This document shows, in pieces, positions 2,382-63,700 of a DNA stretch of 64,000 bases. The position numbers and the translations under genes are program-made. The stretch is from Escherichia coli (GTDB lineage Bacteria > Pseudomonadota > Gammaproteobacteria > Enterobacterales > Enterobacteriaceae), in the NCBI RefSeq assembly GCF_048403405.1, contig NZ_CP183129.1; one strand, written 5' to 3'. Position 1 is the stretch's first letter; every line of letters starts with the position of its first letter. The notes beneath the pieces are model-generated. The model did no database searches, was not told the origin of the DNA, and was given only the letters and a program-made list of their open reading frames with translations.

Positions 2382-3143
2382 ATGTCGCTCGTTTGTTCTG
2401 TTATATTTATTCATCATGCCTTCAACGCTAACATTTTAGATAAAGATTACGCCTTCTCTGACGGCGAGATCCTGATGGTAGATAACGCTGTTCGTACGCA
2501 TTTTGAACCTTATGAGCGGCATTTCAAAGAAATCGGATTTAATGAAAATACCATTAAAAAATATCTACAATGCACTAACATCCAGACAGTGACGGTGCCT
2601 GTTCCTGCGAAGTTTTTACGTGCTTCAAATGTACCGACTGGATTGCTTAATGAAATGATTGCTTATCTCAACTCGGAAGAACGCAATCATCATAATTTTT
2701 CGGAACTTTTGCTTTTTTCTTGCCTATCTATTTTTGCCGCATGCAAAGGTTTCATTACACTATTAACTAACGGTGTGCTATCCGTTTCTGGGAAAGTGAG
2801 AAATATTGTCAACATGAAGCTGGCGCACCCATGGAAGCTGAAAGATATTTGTGACTGCCTGTACATCAGTGAAAGCCTGTTGAAGAAAAAACTTAAGCAA
2901 GAGCAAACGACATTCTCACAGATTCTTTTAGATGCCAGAATGCAGCACGCAAAAAATTTGATACGAGTAGAAGGTTCAGTTAATAAAATTGCCGAACAAT
3001 GTGGTTATGCCAGTACATCTTATTTTATTTATGCGTTCCGCAAACATTTCGGCAACAGTCCGAAGAGAGTTTCTAAGGAGTACCGTTGTCAAAGGCACAC
3101 GGGAATAAATACGGGCAACACGATGAATGCTTTAGCTATTTGA
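2382..3143 (+). CDS. ydeO: AraC-family acid-resistance transcriptional regulator YdeO
   Basis: 253-aa ORF with C-terminal AraC-type HTH (…YASTSYFIYAFRKHFGNSP…); synteny with safA. Confidence 0.9.
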   Translation: MSLVCSVIFIHHAFNANILDKDYAFSDGEILMVDNAVRTHFEPYERHFKEIGFNENTIKKYLQCTNIQTVTVPVPAKFLRASNVPTGLLNEMIAYLNSEERNHHNFSELLLFSCLSIFAACKGFITLLTNGVLSVSGKVRNIVNMKLAHPWKLKDICDCLYISESLLKKKLKQEQTTFSQILLDARMQHAKNLIRVEGSVNKIAEQCGYASTSYFIYAFRKHFGNSPKRVSKEYRCQRHTGINTGNTMNALAI

Positions 3144-3191
3144 TTATTTGCTAACGAGTAGTCAACCACACACGCTACGTAAGAATTAAAT

Positions 3192-3223: not shown

Positions 3224-3544
3224 AGGCGATATATTTATTGAAATAAATAAGTGACATTCATCACATATTTATGCATTTGCATAACCTGTTGCATGATTAT
3301 TTATGATCTCAATTCGGCATTTTATCAGTAAAATACAATAATTTATTAAATATCAATAGATTAGTTGTTTATCTGCGAGAAATTACTTAGTAGAATAGAA
3401 AGTAATGTCAACAGTTTATGGACTGTTATTTCTCTTTTTTTAGCTAAATCTGCTATCTCTTTATGTGACTAACTTCACTTACATCCACTTATTTCTCTTC
3501 GTAAAATTACTTTGGAATTAAGTACAATAAGAAGAGGAACATTT

Positions 3545-5227
3545 ATGAAGTCTGCATTAAAGAAAAGTGTCGTAAGTACCTCGATATCTTTGATACTGGC
3601 ATCTGGTATGGCTGCATTTGCTGCTCATGCGGCAGATGATGTAAAGCTGAAAGCAACCAAAACAAACGTCGCTTTCTCAGACTTTACGCCGACTGAATAC
3701 AGTACCAAAGGAAAGCCAAATATTATCGTACTGACCATGGATGATCTTGGTTATGGACAACTTCCTTTTGATAAGGGATCTTTTGACCCAAAAACTATGG
3801 AAAATCGTGAAGTTGTCGATACCTACAAAATAGGGATAGATAAAGCCATTGAAGCTGCGCAAAAATCAACGCCGACGCTCCTTTCATTAATGGATGAAGG
3901 CGTACGTTTTACTAACGGCTATGTGGCGCACGGTGTTTCCGGCCCCTCCCGTGCCGCAATAATGACCGGTCGAGCGCCCGCCCGCTTTGGTGTCTATTCC
4001 AATACCGATGCTCAGGATGGTATTCCGCTAACAGAAACTTTCCTGCCTGAATTATTCCAGAATCATGGTTATTACACTGCAGCAGTAGGTAAATGGCACT
4101 TGTCAAAAATCAGTAATGTGCCGGTACCGGAAGATAAACAAACGCGTGACTATCATGACAACTTCACCACATTTTCTGCGGAAGAATGGCAACCGCAAAA
4201 CCGTGGCTTTGATTACTTTATGGGATTCCACGCTGCAGGAACGGCATATTACAACTCCCCTTCACTGTTCAAAAACCGTGAACGCGTCCCCGCAAAAGGT
4301 TATATCAGCGATCAGTTAACCGATGAGGCAATTGGCGTTGTTGATCGTGCCAAAACACTTGACCAGCCTTTTATGCTTTACCTGGCTTATAATGCTCCGC
4401 ACCTGCCAAATGATAATCCTGCACCGGAGCAATATCAGAAGCAATTTAATACCGGTAGTCAAACAGCAGATAACTACTACGCTTCCGTTTATTCTGTTGA
4501 TCAGGGTGTAAAACGCATTCTCGAACAACTGAAGAAAAACGGACAGTATGACAATACTATTATTCTCTTTACCTCCGATAATGGTGCGGTTATCGATGGT
4601 CCTCTGCCGCTGAACGGGGCGCAAAAAGGCTATAAGAGTCAGACTTATCCTGGCGGTACTCACACCCCAATGTTTATGTGGTGGAAAGGAAAACTTCAAC
4701 CCGGTAATTATGACAAGCTGATTTCCGCAATGGATTTCTACCCGACAGCTCTTGATGCAGCCGATATCAGCATTCCAAAAGACCTTAAGCTGGATGGCGT
4801 TTCCTTGCTGCCGTGGTTGCAAGATAAGAAACAAGGCGAGCCACATAAAAATCTGACCTGGATAACCTCTTATTCTCACTGGTTTGACGAGGAAAATATT
4901 CCATTCTGGGATAATTACCACAAATTTGTCCGCCATCAGTCAGACGATTACCCGCATAACCCCAACACCGAGGACTTAAGCCAATTCTCTTATACGGTGA
5001 GAAATAACGATTATTCGCTTGTCTATACAGTAGAAAACAATCAGTTAGGTCTCTACAAACTGACGGATCTACAGCAAAAAGATAACCTTGCCGCCGCCAA
5101 TCCGCAGGTCGTTAAAGAGATGCAAGGCGTGGTAAGAGAGTTTATCGACAGCAGCCAGCCACCGCTTAGCGAAGTAAATCAGGAGAAGTTTAACAATATC
5201 AAGAAAGCACTAAGCGAAGCGAAATAA
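3545..5227 (+). CDS. ydeN: Periplasmic sulfatase YdeN (Ser/Cys-type sulfatase, signal peptide)
   Basis: 560 aa from the MKSALKK start; N-terminal signal peptide; sulfatase motifs (…VSGPSRAAIMTGR…); preceded by aagaggaa RBS. Confidence 0.9.
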   Translation: MKSALKKSVVSTSISLILASGMAAFAAHAADDVKLKATKTNVAFSDFTPTEYSTKGKPNIIVLTMDDLGYGQLPFDKGSFDPKTMENREVVDTYKIGIDKAIEAAQKSTPTLLSLMDEGVRFTNGYVAHGVSGPSRAAIMTGRAPARFGVYSNTDAQDGIPLTETFLPELFQNHGYYTAAVGKWHLSKISNVPVPEDKQTRDYHDNFTTFSAEEWQPQNRGFDYFMGFHAAGTAYYNSPSLFKNRERVPAKGYISDQLTDEAIGVVDRAKTLDQPFMLYLAYNAPHLPNDNPAPEQYQKQFNTGSQTADNYYASVYSVDQGVKRILEQLKKNGQYDNTIILFTSDNGAVIDGPLPLNGAQKGYKSQTYPGGTHTPMFMWWKGKLQPGNYDKLISAMDFYPTALDAADISIPKDLKLDGVSLLPWLQDKKQGEPHKNLTWITSYSHWFDEENIPFWDNYHKFVRHQSDDYPHNPNTEDLSQFSYTVRNNDYSLVYTVENNQLGLYKLTDLQQKDNLAAANPQVVKEMQGVVREFIDSSQPPLSEVNQEKFNNIKKALSEAK

Positions 5228-55895: not shown

Positions 55896-57872
55896 ATGCA
55901 GCTTAATCATATCGTTAAAAGTCTGCTAATAACGGGATTATTCACCACCAGTTCTTTACCTCTCCTCGCGGCGGAAGCTCCTAAAGACGCCACCGCAGCC
56001 ACGCAACAAGCAAACAATTTACTCTACAACCAGTTGCCGTTTGCCGATAACACTGACTTTACTGATGCCCATAAAGGTTTTATTGCCCCTATCCCTCAAG
56101 ACGTGATTAAGGGCGAACAAGGGAATGTTATCTGGGATCCACAACATTACGCTTTTATCAAAGAAGGCGATAAAGCCCCTGATACGGTGAATCCGAGTTT
56201 ATGGCGTCAGGCGCAACTGATAAATATCAGCGGGTTATTCGAAGTAACTGAAGGTGTCTATCAGATTCGCAATCTCGATCTATCAAATATGACCATCATT
56301 GAAGGCAAAGAGGGTATTACCGTCGTTGATCCCCTTGTTTCAGCAGAAACAGCCAAAGTGGGTATGGATCTCTATTACAAAAATCGCGGCAAAAAACCGG
56401 TAGTGGCGGTTATCTATACACACAGTCATGTCGATCACTACGGTGGTGTTCGTGGCGTAATTGATGAAGCTGACGTTAAATCAGGCAAAGTTAAAATCTA
56501 TGCGCCAGCCGGATTTTTGGAGGAAGCCGTTTCCGAAAACATCATGGCTGGCAATGTTATGAGCCGACGAGCCAGTTATATGTATGGCAACTTATTGAAA
56601 CCTGATGTTAAAGGCCAGGTGGGGGCTGGACTGGGAACGACTACTTCAGCAGGAACAGTCACGTTGATTGCTCCTACTAACTACATCACCAAAACCGGAC
56701 AAAAAGAAACTATTGACGGGTTGACTTATGATTTCCTGATGGCGCCAGGTTCTGAAGCGCCTTCTGAAATGCTGTGGTTTATTGAAGAAAAGAAACTGAT
56801 CGAAACCGCTGAAGATGTCACGCACACCCTTCATAACACCTATTCGCTGCGTGGGGCTAAAATTCGCCAACCGCTGCCGTGGTCAAAATATATTAATGAA
56901 GCTCTCAATTTGTGGGGTGATAAAGCCGAGATTATTCTCGCTCAACATCACTGGCCAACCTGGGGCAACGATAACGTGGTCAAACTGCTTAAAAGCCAGC
57001 GTGATTTGTATCGTTACATCAATGATCAAACTCTGCGCATGGCTAATCAAGGGATGACCCGTGATGAAATTGCCGCAAACTTTAAACTGCCCTCTTCACT
57101 GGCTAACACCTGGGCGAATCGCGGCTATTACGGTTCGGTAAGTCATGACGTGAAAGCAACTTACGTGCTTTATCTCGGCTGGTTTGATGGTAACCCCGCG
57201 ACGCTTGATGAACTGCCGCCAGAAGAAGGCGCAAAAAAATTCGTCGAGTATATGGGCGGTGCTGATGCCATTTTACAGAAAGCCAAACAGGATTATGACC
57301 AGGGTAATTTCCGCTGGGTTGCCCAAGTTGTTAGTAAGGTGGTGTTTGCCGATCCAAACAACCAGGCAGCGAGAGATCTGGAAGCTGATGCGCTTGAGCA
57401 GTTAGGCTATCAGGCTGAATCTGGGCCGTGGCGTAATTTCTATCTCACTGGTGCACAGGAATTGCGTAATGGCGTACAAAAATTACCAACACCAAATACT
57501 GCCAGCCCAGACACCGTGCGTGCGATGACGCCGGAGATGTTCTTTGATTATCTTGCCGTCCATATTAATGGTGAGAAAGCGGCAGATGCCAAAACCGTGT
57601 TGAATTTCGATTTTGGTGAAGATGGCGGCACCTATAAAGTGGAGCTTGAAAATGGTGTTCTCAATCATACCGCTGGTGTAGAGGCTTCGGATGCTGATGC
57701 CACTATCACTCTGTCTCGTGATGTATTGAACAAAATTGTACTGAAAGAAGAGACGCTGAAAGAAGCCACGGCCAAAGGAGATGTCAAAATTACTGGCAAT
57801 GAGGAAAAACTCAACGAGCTGTTAGGTTATATGGATAATTTTGAATTTTGGTTCAATATAGTGACACCATAA
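55896..57872 (+). CDS. Periplasmic alkyl/aryl sulfatase (metallo-beta-lactamase fold, SdsA1/YjcS-like)
   Basis: 658 aa; signal peptide; metallo-beta-lactamase HxHxDH motif (YTHSHVDHYGG); C-terminal SCP2-like region. Confidence 0.8.
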   Translation: MQLNHIVKSLLITGLFTTSSLPLLAAEAPKDATAATQQANNLLYNQLPFADNTDFTDAHKGFIAPIPQDVIKGEQGNVIWDPQHYAFIKEGDKAPDTVNPSLWRQAQLINISGLFEVTEGVYQIRNLDLSNMTIIEGKEGITVVDPLVSAETAKVGMDLYYKNRGKKPVVAVIYTHSHVDHYGGVRGVIDEADVKSGKVKIYAPAGFLEEAVSENIMAGNVMSRRASYMYGNLLKPDVKGQVGAGLGTTTSAGTVTLIAPTNYITKTGQKETIDGLTYDFLMAPGSEAPSEMLWFIEEKKLIETAEDVTHTLHNTYSLRGAKIRQPLPWSKYINEALNLWGDKAEIILAQHHWPTWGNDNVVKLLKSQRDLYRYINDQTLRMANQGMTRDEIAANFKLPSSLANTWANRGYYGSVSHDVKATYVLYLGWFDGNPATLDELPPEEGAKKFVEYMGGADAILQKAKQDYDQGNFRWVAQVVSKVVFADPNNQAARDLEADALEQLGYQAESGPWRNFYLTGAQELRNGVQKLPTPNTASPDTVRAMTPEMFFDYLAVHINGEKAADAKTVLNFDFGEDGGTYKVELENGVLNHTAGVEASDADATITLSRDVLNKIVLKEETLKEATAKGDVKITGNEEKLNELLGYMDNFEFWFNIVTP

Positions 57873-59089: not shown

Positions 59090-59641
59090 CTATCTTCTTA
59101 GCGATGTCTTTCTGGTATCACATTGGATCGGTGCAATTATTTTTCCTTTAATACCCATTATGTTAAGAAATTCAGAAACAGCTGTAATCTCATTGTTTTT
59201 TTCATTCGTCTTGATCTTACAAGGAATCTGACTGTGCATTATTGAGAACACACTAATAACGTGAATCGCTCCCTTGCGACGACTCTTGTCATAAGAGTAC
59301 CGGAGCGTTTTTCCATCAATTGCAATGACGTCTTTATCATCTGAAGAATGGCAGTCAAGCATCCAGTTAATAAAGCACTCATGAAATTTTTCAGGACTGA
59401 TACAGGATACAACTCTGGCAATGGTATCGTGAACAGGAATACCATTATCAAAATCACCATATTGCTTCAAAAAATCGAGATGTGTTTCCCCAAAATCCTC
59501 TATATCTTCCCAGCCTTCTGCACCCGAAATAACGGCACAAATAGTCAACAGTAGAATATCCGATAATTTATGTTCCACTTTCCAGGCTTGTCTGTAATCG
59601 GGGATAATAGAAATATGTCCCATCAATTTTTTAAGTTCCAT
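59090..59641 (-). mobile_element. H-repeat-associated (ISAs1-family) transposase remnant, N-terminal 183 codons only, frameshifted and truncated
   Basis: [51 protein letters not shown]… matches the conserved H-rpt N-terminus; the DDE catalytic region is absent. Confidence 0.8.
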
Positions 59642-60226
59642 TTTGTTCTCCTTAATTATGTAAGGAGTATTTGATCATGTATACGCAATAAAAAACAGCT
59701 TCAGGTAATGAGGAATATCTCAATTGTTAAACATAAAATGCGAATTGTCTAGTACAAAAAAGCAGCGTTACGTGATCTTTCCGTGGATCGTCAAATTGTT
59801 CGAGAGAAAATACCAACATGATGGATTTTACTGTAAAAGTAATGTCGTAGTTTAAAAACTCATCATCCGGTAAAGCCTTGTGGGGCGTGGGCTTTCATAC
59901 TTTTACCCTGATGTCTGCTATACGCCGGACACCCTTTACGTAGCATTCGGAATTCACCCGTAAATTTATCACGGCGGTATCACGAAACCTCCGGTTCTGA
60001 TGCCGCTTAGGACTAACGACACGTCAACACAGGTTCGGGTTTATTCATTTCACTGTATCTCATATAATCTGAGCACTCCCCCTGCGCTCGCTACTATGAC
60101 TCTTTACCACAGCAACCGGGGTTGTTTGGGATCGGCTTTCAACAGCAGATCCCGGTGGCTATTGCAAGTAAGTCTACTTTCCACATCAGTGTTACTGACA
60201 CAGAAAATAATGAGTTATGATCCTTG

Positions 60227-60712
60227 TCATATTTTTAATATAGCCCCATGAGCTATAGGATCAAAACCTTCTAACCATGAGGTGTTTTTATCGAATAATG
60301 CACCTGTTATATTTATATCGCCATATCTATCACATAATAAATTAGCGCCACATAAGTCAGCACCAGAAAAATTTGAATCTTTAACGTCTGCATTGCAAAA
60401 GGTTGAATTAGTTAATATAGCACCCTCAAAGTTTGCACCTATTGACCTTGAATTACTAAAGTCACTTCCAGTGAAATCTGAGTTATTAAGAATAGCGTTC
60501 ATCAGAGCCGCATTGCGAAAGACAGCATTTCTAGTTGATGTATGTTGAATCATTACATTTCTTAAATGGGAATTTTCAAATTTCGCCCCATCAAGACAAT
60601 AACCATTGAGGATGGCACGATGTAGATCCATCCCGCTAAAATCATATCCAGCAAGAGTGGTACTATCTATATCAAGAAATTTATTGGTTATTAAAAACGC
60701 GATTCTTATCAT
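60227..60712 (-). CDS. Pentapeptide-repeat protein, putative Rhs immunity protein (K-12 ydcD position)
   Basis: 161 aa; tandem A(D/N)(L/F)xx pentapeptides ([25 protein letters not shown] …); start overlaps the Rhs stop by 4 nt. Confidence 0.75.
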
Positions 60713-63700
60713 CTATTCCCCCAATCATCTAACTCCGGAAAAATTTGGCTAAACGGATATAGTGGTGCCGATAATGGACGCGTACCTGGCCGCTCAGGAG
60801 GAAGTTTATCACATAACAGACCCGCAACCATCCTGTGATTACCATTAACAATCACATTCCCATCCATATCAACCGGTGGTGCTCCACTACCATCTTCCAG
60901 CATTTGTACGTAGTGAGCTACTACGGGTACTGAGACTTTTTGTTGTACTGTCAACAAGGGACTGTTGGCCACAACCATCCTGATGTTTTCAGGTGTCGTA
61001 GGTAAACATTTAGTCTTCTCTTGACTAAAGGTATCATCCCACAATTTTGTTAAACCCATCACTGCCTGTTGTCTGTATTTATCCATGGGGTCAGCAATCA
61101 ACCAAGATGGACCTGACTGCTCTATGGAATCTTCTCCGGAGAGACCCAACGGATCTATCTTAGTAGTTGGATTCAATGGATACTGATACAGGTTCCATGC
61201 ACCTCTTAGCCCAATGGGATCCTGGGTGATATACCGCCCCTGCAACGGGTCATAGTACCGGTTGCGGTTATAGTACAGCCCCGACTCCTCATCATACTGC
61301 TGCCCCGGCAGACGGTACGGCTGTTGCAGTTGCTGCGCGCTGGTTTCGCCCAGCAGGTTTCCCCACTCGTCATACTCCCCCTGCCACGCCGTTTCCCCTT
61401 CCGGGCTGATGAGCGCCTGCGGCAGCCCCCGGTGGTCGCAGTGGTAAAGATGAAGTGTCCTCTCCGGGATGTATTCCGCCTCCATCTGGTTTTTCATCTG
61501 TTCCGCCGTCAGCCCGCACTGCTGAAGCCATGCCTCACTCTCCGCACTCACCGCACCCGCGCGCAGTTCCCGCTCCAGCCTCCCCAGCATCACCGACAGC
61601 TCCGCCGGTAGCGTCACCCCCGTGTCCTCCTGCAACACCTCCGCCAGACTCCGGTGCCGCGCCTTCGCCTGTTCACCATTCTCTGTTTCGATTCTGATGA
61701 GCGGCGTGAAGCTCCCCGGCTGGTATACCGTCTGGATACGCGTGGTGCCGGTCTGTACCGTCGTCAGCCTGTCACCGTCCCACCCGTACCAGGTCTCCTC
61801 CGGTTTACGCGACAGCGACATCCACCCCGTCAGGTCACGCTCCCGCCGCCACACCCGTTTCCCCGTCCGGCGGCCCAGCGGGTCATAGAGGTAGCGGCTC
61901 TCCACCTGTGGCTCGCCGTGCTGTATCCGCGTGTAGAACACCAGGCGGTGCTGGCTGTCGTAATGGTAGTGGTGCGTCCGCTCGTCGTGCATCCGTATCA
62001 CCCCTTCCGGGATACGGTCCGTCTTCTCCGCCAGCCTGCCGTATTCATCGTAGCGGTAGACATAGTGCGCATCTTCCGTGATGCGGTTATCCGGCCACGC
62101 CGTGAAGGTGCTGTCCGGGTGCAGTTCCGGGTCCGGCAGCCGGTTTCCTGCCGGGTCCGTCGCATACGGGATATCGATATCCAGGTTCGCCGCCGTGGTG
62201 TGAACGCCCGTCAGTCTTCCCGTGTCGCTGTAACGGTACTTCCGGCTCTCCTGCGGGCCGCTGATGCGCACCAGTTGCCCGTTATCGTTCCACGTATACT
62301 CACGGTCAAGCTGCGGAAGGTTCAGGTGCCTGCTCCGGAGCTGCCCTGTGAGGGTGTACGCCGTGGCCTGTTCGTACCCCGCTGTACTGCCCGCCCCGCC
62401 GAAGCTGCGGGCCGTCTCACGGTGCAGCCGGTCCCGCGTGTACTCGACCAGCGGCGTTCCGCCCAGCTTCATCCCCGCAAGATAACCGCTGCCATACGTC
62501 AGCCACTCCACCGGCGGCAGACCGTCCGGCTCCTGACGGGTCGCCAGCCCCTGTTCGCTGTAGACGTGCCTCGTCTCATGCTCCCACAGCATCTCCCCCG
62601 TCTCCTGGTTCTCCACCGTCTGCCGTTCGCCCGTCAGGCGGCCTTTATCGTCATAGCCGTAGTGGACCGCCACACGGTGGCCTTCGCTCAGGTGGCTGAT
62701 TTCTGTCAGCCAGCCGTGGTCGTCATACTGCCACTGCTCCGCCGGGTCGCCGTTCACCGTCCGGTGCGTGATGCGCCCGGCGTCATCGTAGTACCACTGC
62801 GTGACCTGCCCCTCATCCTCGCTGCGGATGAGCTGCCCTGTGGCGCTGTACCGGTAACGCTGTGTCCTGCCGTCAAAGCCGCGCTGCTCCGTCAGCCTGT
62901 CCACCGGGTCATACCGGAACGTGGACTGGCTGCCGTTCTCGTTGGTCAGCACGGTGATGCGCCCGGCGGCGTCATACTCCATGCTGCGCGTCAGTCCGCC
63001 CTGCGTGGTGCTGACGGCCTTTCCCCACGCATCATACTGTGTCTCACTCCGGCTGCCGTTCGGGGCAATGATAGCGGTGAGGTCGCCTGCGGCGCTGTAC
63101 TCATAACGGGTTTCACGTCCCTGCGCATCCTTCTGACTGACCAGTTGACCACGCGGGTTATAACTGCTGTAAGTGCTGATGCCTTCCTCCCGGTGAACCG
63201 CCGTCCTCTGACCGTACCGGTCGTATTCATACCGCGTCGTGTACCCTGAACAGTCCGTAAATGCCTGAAGCTGACCGTACCGGTTTCGCGTTATTCTCCG
63301 CCTCACCCCGGTTCCGTCTTCCACCGCACAGGGCAGGCCACTGCGGGAAGAATCATAAAACCAGCGCGTAATGTTACCGTTGCGCGAGACCTCTTCCGCC
63401 AGCCTGCCCTGACGGTCATATTTCCGGCTGCGGCGCAGCCCGTCCGGGTACGTCACTGACGTCAGTTGCAACTGGTTGTTGTAACCATACCGTACCGTCC
63501 TGCCGTCCGGCAGTATCACTGAAGTCAGCTTTCCCGACGCCATATGCAGCCGGTACTCCGTCCGCCGTCCCGCCGCATCCGTCTGCGCCTTCAGCCTCCC
63601 CGCCTCATCATACTCGCTGCGGGTGATGCTCCCGTCCCCATACTCCTTCTTCACCACCCGCTTCAGGCCGCCCTCGCCCTCCGTGTACAGCACCTCCCGC

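Follow-up and report, generated by a model that had tools for sequence, protein, structure and literature searches.

What is the last stretch of an Rhs protein for when it resembles no curated toxin family, and why should the gene behind it encode a pentapeptide-repeat protein (PRP)? New antibacterial activities come in large part from Rhs, CDI, and T6SS toxins, most of whose tips have no assigned activity. We address this question for an rhsE-type locus on an Escherichia coli chromosome. The window that we analyzed (64,000 nucleotides) contains this locus, and all of the features described here lie on the minus strand (Table 1). In outline, we propose that the tip is a ParB/sulfiredoxin (Srx)-fold polymorphic toxin, directed against DNA or a nucleotide-dependent substrate, and that the cognate PRP neutralizes it by binding it directly. 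We put the probability of this explanation as a whole at roughly 65%.

Table 1. Coordinates of the Rhs gene, its toxin tip, and neighboring features in the window.
Feature	Position	Strand	Remarks
Rhs core (YD-repeat shell)	61171..64000	-	gene runs past the window end; GC 0.60-0.68; frame open to 63999
PxxxxDPxGL demarcation motif (10 residues)	61141-61170	-	read from sequence; the conserved core ends here
Tip residues 1-44, linker or pre-toxin segment	61009..61140	-	poorly conserved; pLDDT 57-66; homologs align only from about residue 40
ParB/Srx-fold toxin domain (predicted), tip residues 45-143	60712..61008	-
N99-G100-N101-H102-R103, local form of the DGNHR motif	60832..60846	-	start of helix 101-109
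ATGA overlap of Rhs stop and PRP start	60709..60712	-	ATG 60712-60710, TGA 60711-60709; translational coupling
161-aa PRP, predicted cognate immunity protein	60227..60712	-	stop included; Pfam matches; AlphaFold model; downstream orthologs
Disrupted ISAs1 (H-repeat) transposase	59090..59641	-	ORF; downstream bound of the Rhs element

A swappable cassette at the end of an Rhs gene

From the window end (64000), the Rhs reading frame continues without interruption to a stop codon at 60709-60711. The window is identical to the DNA of E. coli CFSAN061763, in whose complete genome the Rhs gene is intact (1,403 codons). The NCBIfam model RHS_core (NF041261) matches residues 1-1260 of this identical protein at 2,513 bits (cut-off 2,000), Rhs_assc_core (TIGR03696) matches residues 1183-1260, and six YD repeats are also found. 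Along with the core and its PxxxxDPxGL motif, the locus has the third mark of an Rhs polymorphic toxin, a small gene in the immunity position that varies with the tip. The motif is expected to be the site at which Rhs cleaves itself. In the identical genome, the transposase that bounds the element downstream is annotated as ISAs1 family, frameshifted and incomplete.

The initial annotation had placed a sharp break in base composition at the DPLGL motif, whose D codon begins at 61155, the upper limit of the annotated interval, and had read the tip and the overlapping gene as a swappable toxin/immunity cassette. Both points hold. In 200-nt windows, GC is 0.60-0.68 at 61200-63999, 0.42-0.46 at 60700-61199, and 0.325-0.365 at 60200-60699, so the switch is sharp and lies at the motif; the means are about 0.44 for the tip (143 codons, 61140-60712) and about 0.34 for the 161-aa gene. 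Across 5,426 complete E. coli genomes, the tip and the downstream gene occur together in only 143 (at least 99% identity), while 3,211 align with no more than the opening ~130-156 nt of the query, which are the end of the Rhs core, at 84-92% identity. In genomes with a different tip, similarity ends at the PxxxxDPxGL motif. As the core end is common to more than 3,200 genomes and the tip with its gene is limited to 143, the cassette is swappable. A pseudogene or decayed cassette is ruled out: the two ORFs are intact, a complete genome has them at 100% identity, and the 143 carriers agree at 99% identity or better. We are confident that the 3' end of this intact E. coli Rhs gene carries a toxin/immunity cassette.

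The tip belongs to a large family with a ParB/Srx fold

Even at E ≤ 10, Pfam offers no family for the tip, and no NCBIfam model, PADLOC model, or PDB sequence (phmmer) matches it. So, the initial statement that it belongs to no characterized toxin family stands as regards Pfam, NCBIfam, and the PDB, and the Pfam search assigned it to no known non-toxin domain either. The tip is nevertheless classifiable. Its domain has the core beta-alpha-beta-beta-alpha fold of the ParB/sulfiredoxin superfamily, and it carries at the N-terminus of a helix the G-x-x-R phosphate-binding loop that takes the forms GERR, GCHR, or DGHHR in that superfamily. The loop N99-R103 is the predicted phosphate-binding active-site loop. 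hhalign places it on the GCHR of sulfiredoxin (P = 0.002) and on the GERR of ParB/Spo0J (P = 0.0095), although these scores are weak. Sequence profiles do not reach this far: 59 family members have no match to any Pfam family, including ParBc (PF02195) and its relatives, and a profile of these 59 members against PDB sequences gave only chance matches to SRP54 N-domains (E > 0.2). With neither a Pfam match (E ≤ 10) nor a significant PDB profile match, the tip falls outside the ParB superfamily as sequence profiles define it. On the fold and the motif, we consider it very likely that the tip is a ParB/Srx-fold toxin domain.

The family comprises 329 representatives (clusters at 50% identity), in which the domain is always C-terminal. 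Its carriers include DUF6531/RHS, TEN_YD-shell, SpvB/TcdB, Fil_haemagg/DUF637, and Hint proteins. These relatives came from an exhaustive search of representatives; a word-indexed homolog search gave only two fragments, because Rhs proteins probably cluster by their cores, so that their tips were missed. Within the family, three residues of the loop (G100, H102, and R103) never vary, and N101 is conserved at 97%. Position 99 can be D, E, N, or G (N in E. coli, giving NGNHR), and the consensus is DGNHR, with H instead of N at the third position of the motif in a minority of members.

The downstream gene encodes a short, acidic pentapeptide-repeat protein

The initial annotation of the overlapping gene as a pentapeptide-repeat gene in the immunity position is confirmed by three matches to PF00805 (Pentapeptide; best E = 1.8e-8), along with matches to Pentapeptide_4 and Pentapeptide_3, and by the ATGA overlap, which recurs in three loci with distant homologs. 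The AlphaFold model contains about 22 regular five-residue rungs over about 110 residues, with a strand every 5 residues and pLDDT of 94-99, as expected for tandem pentapeptide repeats that form a quadrilateral beta-helix (the PF00805 class). The protein has its own N-terminal cap (MI.I...LHRA) and a C-terminal W-P-x-G-F-D-P...G-A-I element.

All 37 PRPs that we scored are net acidic (mean −6.4), yet the most conserved residues of the PRP surface are basic rather than acidic. In particular, H31, R32, and R51 are invariant and face outward with a 20-residue period along one face. Another E. coli strain has a fragment of the PRP gene within an orphan immunity array behind a different Rhs gene, and tblastn against plasmids yielded nothing beyond generic PRPs and a single E. 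coli fragment. There is no other candidate immunity ORF between the 161-aa gene and the ISAs1 remnant. We also used a paired alignment to model the toxin joined to the PRP by a (GGGGS)6 linker: both halves folded confidently, and the fused model as a whole reached pTM 0.69, a value that says nothing about contact between the two.

Toxin and PRP are paired across phyla

At 51 of the 61 loci that have room for one, the ORF that directly follows the toxin domain is matched by a family-specific HMM for the PRP. A six-frame search of 323,691 bp of flanking sequence gave a single additional PRP match, a possible orphan copy at one locus. The pairing spans at least 10 phyla (Pseudomonadota, Bacteroidota, Bacillota, Actinomycetota, Planctomycetota, Verrucomicrobiota, Myxococcota, Gemmatimonadota, Acidobacteriota, and Fusobacteriota), which makes the link between tip and PRP stronger than initially proposed. 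The two proteins also diversify together: their pairwise identities are correlated (r = 0.71; Mantel test, 0/2,000). Furthermore, whether the carrier is T5SS-type (Fil_haemagg/DUF637), TcdB/SpvB-type, or Gram-positive, the same PRP family follows its toxin domain, so the PRP goes with the toxin irrespective of the delivery route. This conserved pairing points to a widespread, previously undescribed toxin/immunity pair.

Among the ten loci that lack a PRP, the partner in six is a HAD-like protein. A partner resembling HAD-type phosphatases (HAD_SAK_2, E = 1.7e-26) is present at loci L012 and L035 and in a divergent clade of standalone toxins (L057 and L065-L067). A literature search that joined HAD_SAK, ParB, and RNA repair returned no match.

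Proposed mechanism and alternatives

We propose that the Rhs shell would cleave itself at the demarcation motif and release the 143-residue tip, the last ~100 residues of which would form a minimal ParB/Srx-fold enzyme. Its active site would be built on Q66, S70, and the G100-N-H102-R103 loop. In the cytoplasm of the target cell, the enzyme would attack DNA or a nucleotide-dependent substrate, with nickase or DNase activity the likeliest. The PRP, as a short acidic right-handed beta-helix of about 22 rungs, would bind the toxin directly via the conserved face with H31, R32, and R51, and might occupy the toxin surface that otherwise holds nucleic acid. That the tip is toxic and that the PRP protects against it we infer from their genomic context. 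As the PRP follows the toxin on any carrier, diversifies with it, and has a surface stripe of its own, the pattern fits a direct binder of the toxin rather than a protector of a conserved target, and the PRP probably confers immunity in this way.

The chemistry of the toxin is harder to predict. In characterized relatives with the ParB/Srx fold, the same loop binds the phosphate of a nucleotide, and in some of them it also serves in DNA cleavage (PMC4619093): Osa, plant sulfiredoxin, and a ParB-like nuclease of Pyrococcus furiosus are NTPases or DNases that use this site (PMC4619093). Also, ParB domains on Rhs and hemagglutinin carriers were predicted to be nuclease toxins in a survey (PMC3482391). 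Set against this, no acidic residue is invariant across the family and position 99 is variable, which would be unusual for a metal-dependent nuclease; and the toxin domains carry almost no net charge (mean +0.6; −2 in E. coli), so they do not offer the basic surface expected of a DNA binder. We rate an activity directed against DNA at slightly under even odds. As the PRPs are acidic and the toxin domains are neutral, net charge does not discriminate for or against DNA binding and mimicry. The basic, invariant surface of the PRP is a poor fit to simple mimicry of a phosphate backbone. DNA mimicry is only a tentative suggestion for how the PRP inhibits.

The toxin could instead be an NTP-dependent phosphotransferase or an NTPase that phosphorylates or depletes a protein, a metabolite, or RNA, with the PRP as a rigid scaffold that blocks the nucleotide pocket. 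Models for such an activity would be sulfiredoxin, the free-serine kinases SerK and SbnI, and the CTP-binding proteins ParB, KorB, and PadC. The best structural neighbors of the tip domain are mostly nucleotide-using enzymes that are not nucleases; the invariant Q, S, and G-N-H-R fit a phosphate-binding loop, with no invariant carboxylate; and the toxin domains are not basic. Moreover, the phosphatase-like HAD partners at a minority of loci and in the sister clade would suit immunity by reversal of phosphorylation, which hints at phosphotransfer rather than DNA cleavage. However, these partners are only putative phosphatases and putative immunity proteins, the majority partner is a PRP, whose fold is best known for imitating B-form DNA, and both the 2012 survey (PMC3482391) and the precedent of Osa (PMC4619093) favor a nuclease. 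So, we regard a phosphotransferase or NTPase as rather unlikely.

It had also been suggested, by analogy with Qnr and its relatives, that the toxin poisons gyrase, topoisomerase IV, or another DNA-binding enzyme and that the PRP guards this target as a DNA mimic. All of the family's PRPs are acidic, and the PRP does show generic similarity to structures of the QnrB1, MfpA, and AlbG type (E from 1e-11 to 1e-4), but PRPs that have nothing to do with topoisomerases are equally similar. Its scores are also far below the curated cut-offs for MfpA (37.2 bits against 360), Qnr (32.3 against 240), and QnrB (33.5 against 460). Co-diversification with the toxin across phyla would be needless in a protector of a highly conserved target, and the private H-R/R stripe, the translational coupling, and the fragment in an orphan immunity array also argue for a partner of the toxin. 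We know of no ParB/Srx-fold protein that poisons a topoisomerase. The proposed topoisomerase target thus finds no support in our analysis, and we think it very improbable. It is even harder to see the PRP as a secretion accessory or chaperone (of the TagA/TagB, DUF2169-linked type of T6SS), with the true immunity gene elsewhere or absent. Pentapeptide_4 proteins do recur as T6SS accessory genes near vgrG and PAAR (PMC3942780), but in the complete genome there are no vgrG, PAAR, or DUF2169 genes within 12 kb on either side of the cassette. The PRP gene overlaps the 3' end of the toxin gene by ATGA, no alternative immunity ORF precedes the ISAs1 remnant, and the PRP tracks the toxin over T5SS-type, TcdB/SpvB-type, and Gram-positive carriers. 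We give such a role hardly any weight.

Returning to direct binding of the toxin by the PRP, a speculative extension is that the PRP clade, in its at least 10 phyla, consists of rigid, DNA-shaped plugs for the cleft of ParB/Srx toxins, with the HAD partners as a second, enzymatic route to immunity.

Relation to known systems

The Tox-ParB class was predicted to be polymorphic toxins in 2012 (Zhang et al., Biol Direct 7:18, PMC3482391). As that survey describes them, Tox-ParB and Tox-ParBL1 resemble the tip in being C-terminal ParB-fold domains on RHS and filamentous-hemagglutinin carriers in many phyla, with a conserved arginine-containing motif at the DGHHR position, and a conserved upstream serine of Tox-ParBL1 is the counterpart of S70 (PMC3482391). 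The motif of Tox-ParB is DGHHR, whereas our family has DGNHR and only a minority has H at the third position; this comparison with the 2012 families is by description (PMC3482391). The immunity genes differ as well. The survey lists Imm20, Imm27, and Imm-SuFu, or SUKH and Imm44 (PMC3482391). Of our 61 loci, 51 have a PRP and six of the ten without one have a HAD-like protein, which differs from the association of Tox-ParB with Imm20, Imm27, or Imm-SuFu. The word "pentapeptide" does not occur in the available text of the survey (PMC3482391). Our literature search found no biochemical characterization of Tox-ParB or Tox-ParBL1 toxins. More broadly, the tip shares its fold core with Osa, plant sulfiredoxin, the P. 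furiosus ParB-like nuclease, GmrS/DUF262, and DGQHR domains (PMC4619093). A D-G-x-x-R phosphate loop at the start of a helix is common to ParB/Srx enzymes, and the forms DGQHR and DGQQR are close to DGNHR (PMC4619093).

Like the PRP in the window, the gyrase protectors QnrB1, MfpA, McbG, and AlbG are right-handed quadrilateral pentapeptide beta-helices with a net acidic charge, and they protect their producer or host from a toxic agent, as we predict for the PRP. In contrast to them, the PRP is shorter (161 aa, ~22 rungs), has its own N-terminal cap and C-terminal element, and is coupled to the gene for a protein toxin rather than to a small-molecule pathway or a gyrase context. Its partner is likely to be the toxin itself, unlike that of the gyrase protectors.

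Two reports describe similar gene pairs. In Stenotrophomonas rhizophila, the Rhs-Ct toxin Tse6 pairs with a pentapeptide-repeat-like immunity protein, Tsi6a, and in Mycobacterium chelonae, the T7SS toxin DYE20_11250 pairs with a pentapeptide-repeat antitoxin, DYE20_11255 (bioRxiv 10.64898/2026.07.13.738213). Orthologs of Tse6 are found on PAAR, Rhs, HINT, and TPS carriers in Actinomycetes, Planctomycetes, and gamma- and deltaproteobacteria, and deletion of tse6 lowers killing in competition assays (bioRxiv 10.64898/2026.07.13.738213). The Tse6 domain, which was termed rare (37 strains) and for which no fold was named, can be likened to our tip by description (bioRxiv 10.64898/2026.07.13.738213). 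Our genome scan for toxin-PRP loci returned no locus from Stenotrophomonas. The second report concerns the GH-E (His-Me finger) Rhs toxins, predicted nucleases that, like our tip, are encoded beside a PRP gene (YjbI-like) in many species (Jablonska et al., 2017, PMC5714182). Their fold differs from that of the tip. The authors did not take the PRP for an immunity protein, and by their account no immunity gene was found (PMC5714182).

Implications

The tip defines a large family (the 329 clusters) that has no curated model and whose fold class is not known to have been characterized in any toxin. On the other side of the pair, pentapeptide-repeat proteins number in the tens of thousands, and, to our knowledge, almost none has a known partner, gyrase protectors aside. 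With a toxin partner that is conserved and translationally coupled, one clade of these proteins gains a function that is directly testable. As the two proteins are short (about 100 aa and 161 aa), originate in E. coli, and are easily expressed, both the action of ParB-type toxins and DNA mimicry by PRPs become questions for the bench. Our finding may also explain the PRP genes beside GH-E toxins (reported in 2017) and the PRP-like Tsi6a (2026). If the PRPs of this clade are indeed DNA-shaped plugs, they would be the first DNA-mimic immunity proteins in polymorphic toxin systems, and a large set of orphan PRPs would have its first assigned function. The toxin would then be the first experimentally tractable ParB-type effector, acting as a nucleotide-gated nickase or as a nucleic-acid phosphotransferase.

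An Rhs tip and its downstream gene form a swappable cassette

The C-terminal tip of the Rhs protein and the downstream gene, which encodes a pentapeptide-repeat protein (PRP), form a swappable cassette (see table). Our query matched 3,211 of 5,426 complete E. coli genomes, and nearly all of these matches were confined to its first 130–156 nt, where the Rhs core ends (84–92% identity). The tip and the downstream gene are present in only 143 of the 5,426 genomes, at identities of at least 99%. GC content is 0.60–0.68 in the core, 0.42–0.46 in the tip, and 0.33–0.37 in the downstream gene. The initial annotation had described an Rhs tip/immunity cassette with a composition break at the core motif, and every element that it observed was correctly placed. 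In E. coli strain 405, an rhsB-type locus near nikR (L002, 8036–8401) contains two annotated PRP pseudogene fragments with 94.7% DNA identity to window bases 60428–60747. Downstream of a different Rhs gene there, a series of orphan immunity genes (NTF2-fold immunity proteins, DUF6258, and the HEAT-repeat protein YibA) encloses both fragments.

Features of the window and partner genes at related loci
Sequence	Feature	Coordinates	Strand	Remark
Window	Rhs frame	from window end to TGA 60709–60711	minus	open
Window	Core end	61141–61170	minus	motif [10 protein letters not shown]
Window	143-codon tip	61140–60712	minus	directly after core motif
Window	161-codon PRP ORF	60712–60227	minus	ATG overlaps Rhs stop (ATGA)
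Window	Disrupted ISAs1 (H-repeat) transposase gene	59090–59641	minus	boundary of Rhs element
Window	Membrane GGDEF protein, 365 aa	57919–59016	plus	between Rhs element and pptA/yddH/nhoA
Window	Alkyl/aryl-sulfatase, 658 aa, signal peptide	55896–57872	plus	between Rhs element and pptA/yddH/nhoA
L008	Cys/Phe-rich repeat protein gene	584–1033
L009	Cys/Phe-rich repeat protein gene	3288–3845
L010	Cys/Phe-rich repeat protein gene	1155–1604
L011	Cys/Phe-rich repeat protein gene	3311–3709
L012	HAD-type phosphatase-like gene	1155–1526
L035	HAD-type phosphatase-like gene	273–701
L057	HAD-type phosphatase-like gene	3324–3806
L065	HAD-type phosphatase-like gene	3385–3843
L066	HAD-type phosphatase-like gene	3335–3805
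L067	HAD-type phosphatase-like gene	3336–3812

The window is chromosomal E. coli DNA. E. coli CFSAN061763 is 100% identical to window bases 60100–61300. Its gene order is yncG, an ISAs1 pseudogene, the RHS element core protein (1,403 aa), the pentapeptide repeat-containing protein, an ISAs1 fragment, the GGDEF protein, the alkyl/aryl-sulfatase, pptA, yddH, and nhoA. The sulfatase and GGDEF genes are presumably absent from this position in E. coli K-12, and this stretch may be strain-variable. The spacer between the ISAs1 remnant and the PRP gene (59642–60226, about 585 nt, GC up to 0.48) contains no convincing ORF. At the other end of the PRP gene, the conserved D-W-G-N-R at the toxin's C-terminus is encoded by GAT TGG GGG AAT AGA (60713–60727), and the G-run in these codons precedes the overlapping PRP ATG by about 5 nt and resembles a ribosome-binding site for it. 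Because these codons double as an apparent translation signal, they may be constrained both as protein sequence and as signal.

The tip family

As a single sequence, the tip has no match in Pfam, NCBIfam, PADLOC, or the PDB, in keeping with the initial annotation, which recognized no characterized toxin family. When 1.84 billion cluster representatives were searched exhaustively with HMMER, 329 related proteins were recovered at E ≤ 1e-3 (117 at E ≤ 1e-10). Among the best 150 of these 329, which are 73 to 2,388 residues long, every match spans tip residues ~40–143 and lies at the C-terminus. According to contig look-ups and AlphaFold DB descriptions, the carriers are DUF6531/RHS, teneurin-like YD shell, SpvB/TcdB-midN/RHS, Fil_haemagg_2/DUF637 (CdiA-like), and Hint or intein-containing proteins. 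C-terminal placement on so many carriers is the hallmark of a polymorphic toxin module. Among 59 aligned members, S70, G100, H102, and R103 are invariant and Q66, G84, and A106 are conserved in at least 90%; the consensus is Q..VS.P.VQ.YV...E.G...PPIKVDG..IVDGNHRYIAG.

A conserved partner across phyla

The downstream gene does encode a PRP, as initially annotated: it has three Pfam Pentapeptide matches (best E 1.8e-8) as well as Pentapeptide_3 and Pentapeptide_4, and it resembles many solved pentapeptide-repeat structures, none of them specifically. In five of five distant homologues examined by contig look-up, a PRP of 150–163 aa begins no more than 12 nt from the toxin stop (in L005, the ORF is present although it was not called as a gene). 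Scanning one genome per species gave 64 toxin-domain loci from Pseudomonadota, Bacteroidota, Bacillota, Actinomycetota, Planctomycetota, Verrucomicrobiota, Myxococcota, Gemmatimonadota, Acidobacteriota, and Fusobacteriota. A family HMM built from five PRPs (the window's and four from the contigs) matched the ORF just downstream in 51 of the 61 loci with at least 300 nt of downstream sequence, mostly at E 1e-33 to 1e-76. When all 323,691 bp of these loci were searched in six frames, the sole match elsewhere was a second copy upstream in L032. Furthermore, pairwise identities of toxin domains and PRPs are correlated (r = 0.71 over 41 pairs; reached by 0 of 2,000 permutations). Thus, by sequence, the two are a conserved, co-inherited gene pair, although pairing alone does not establish protein-protein binding.

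In L032 (Candidatus Thiomargarita nelsonii), the toxin domain (3001–3177) is truncated, and a full-length family PRP (816–1304, 177 bits) lies about 1.7 kb upstream of it and not after it, an arrangement that points to tandem or orphan cassettes. In the tip's closest relatives (54–61% identity; L008–L011, from Neisseria lactamica, N. perflava, Aggregatibacter, and a gammaproteobacterial MAG), the next gene encodes a degenerate repeat protein of another kind, rich in Cys and Phe (F-x-N-C-x-F), that scores only 40–59 bits with the PRP HMM. The PRP of E. coli is a canonical family member, so within this sub-clade the lineages of toxin and immunity protein do not match strictly.

In the AlphaFold model of a toxin-PRP fusion, the PRP has about 22 regular five-residue rungs (pLDDT 94–99), capped by a hairpin at the N-terminus and by a short helix at the C-terminus. 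The window's PRP and those of the distant homologues have two terminal sequences of their own in common, MI.I...L...LHRA at the N-terminus and W-P-x-G-F-D-P...G-A-I at the C-terminus. Invariant outward-facing residues repeat with the 20-residue period of the coil (H31 and R32 in one coil, R51 in the next) and are stacked on an inward L30/L50/L70 ladder, which marks out a conserved surface on one face of the first coils. The PRPs are acidic in 37 of 37 scored (mean net charge −6.4).

How the toxin and its partner might act

We propose that the PRP is an immunity protein that neutralizes the toxin by direct binding. This seems most likely because the PRP accompanies the toxin irrespective of how the toxin is delivered, the two genes are translationally coupled, and the PRP has invariant outward-facing residues. 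The initial annotation had proposed, only by analogy with Qnr, MfpA, McbG, and AlbG, that the toxin may act on a topoisomerase, such as gyrase, or on another DNA-binding enzyme. The window's PRP scores just 33–37 bits against the NCBIfam models for Qnr, QnrB, and MfpA (cut-offs 240–460 bits), which places it outside the gyrase-protecting families, and the genetics look like toxin-specific immunity rather than protection of a target. We consider this model very improbable.

As for the toxin's activity, well-studied proteins of the ParB/sulfiredoxin fold bind nucleotide phosphates through a G-x-x-R loop, and DNA is also cleaved by Osa (at the same site), plant sulfiredoxin, and a ParB-like protein of P. 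furiosus (PMC4619093). Given this precedent, a DNA-directed activity, possibly nucleotide-gated, would be the likeliest. The main alternative is that the toxin is an NTP-dependent phosphotransferase or NTPase. Sulfiredoxin and SerK transfer phosphate, and a phosphatase-type partner would fit a toxin that did likewise. A HAD-type phosphatase-like gene directly follows the ParB-like domain in 6 of the 10 loci that lack the PRP. In two of these, from Mitsuaria and Paucibacter (Burkholderiales; L012 and L035), the toxins are 44–45% identical to the E. coli tip, and the next gene encodes a small non-PRP protein that contains the DxDxT motif YVDVDDTL and weakly resembles HAD or viral phosphatases. 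In the other four, from Bacteroidota, a divergent ParB-like domain precedes a clear HAD_SAK_2 member (motifs LLDIDGVMV...TTSHKS...IIDDD); for L066, the locus that was read completely, the partner matches Pfam HAD_SAK_2 at E 1.7e-26 and the ParB-like neighbor is a standalone protein of 128 aa. Such partners hint at phosphate transfer by some toxins with this fold.

If the toxin is instead DNA-directed, the PRP might occupy its nucleic-acid site. PRPs are classic DNA-shaped proteins, and this shape together with their acidity makes such a mechanism attractive. On the other hand, the toxin domains have a net charge near zero and no invariant carboxylate, the invariant surface residues of the PRPs are basic, and the fusion model has a pTM of only 0.69, without an interface read-out. 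For these reasons, we give DNA-directed activity a probability of roughly 45%, and DNA mimicry by the PRP seems rather doubtful.

Relation to known toxins

PRPs are not listed as immunity proteins in a 2012 catalogue (PMC3482391). According to a 2017 survey of His-Me finger nucleases, GH-E Rhs toxins in many species have genes for YjbI-like PRPs beside them; these were not seen as immunity proteins, and no immunity gene was recognized (PMC5714182). A 2025 preprint mentions Pectobacterium Rhs tips 'containing a ParB motif', and a P. parmentieri Rhs protein is among the AlphaFold DB homologues of our tip (39% identity). More recently, a July 2026 preprint described Tse6, an Rhs tip of Stenotrophomonas rhizophila with no assigned function, together with a PRP-like immunity protein, and also a T7SS toxin of Mycobacterium chelonae with a PRP antitoxin (bioRxiv 10.64898/2026.07.13.738213). 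The preprint names no fold. The carriers and taxa that it describes are like those of our family, and Tse6 may belong to the same family.

As an Rhs toxin/immunity cassette, the system is of an ordinary kind, and it is more general than was initially stated. What it represents is a large, uncurated family of ParB/sulfiredoxin-type toxins, whose function we infer, with a conserved and essentially undescribed PRP immunity partner. PRPs may recur as immunity proteins against toxins that target nucleic acids and have unrelated folds.
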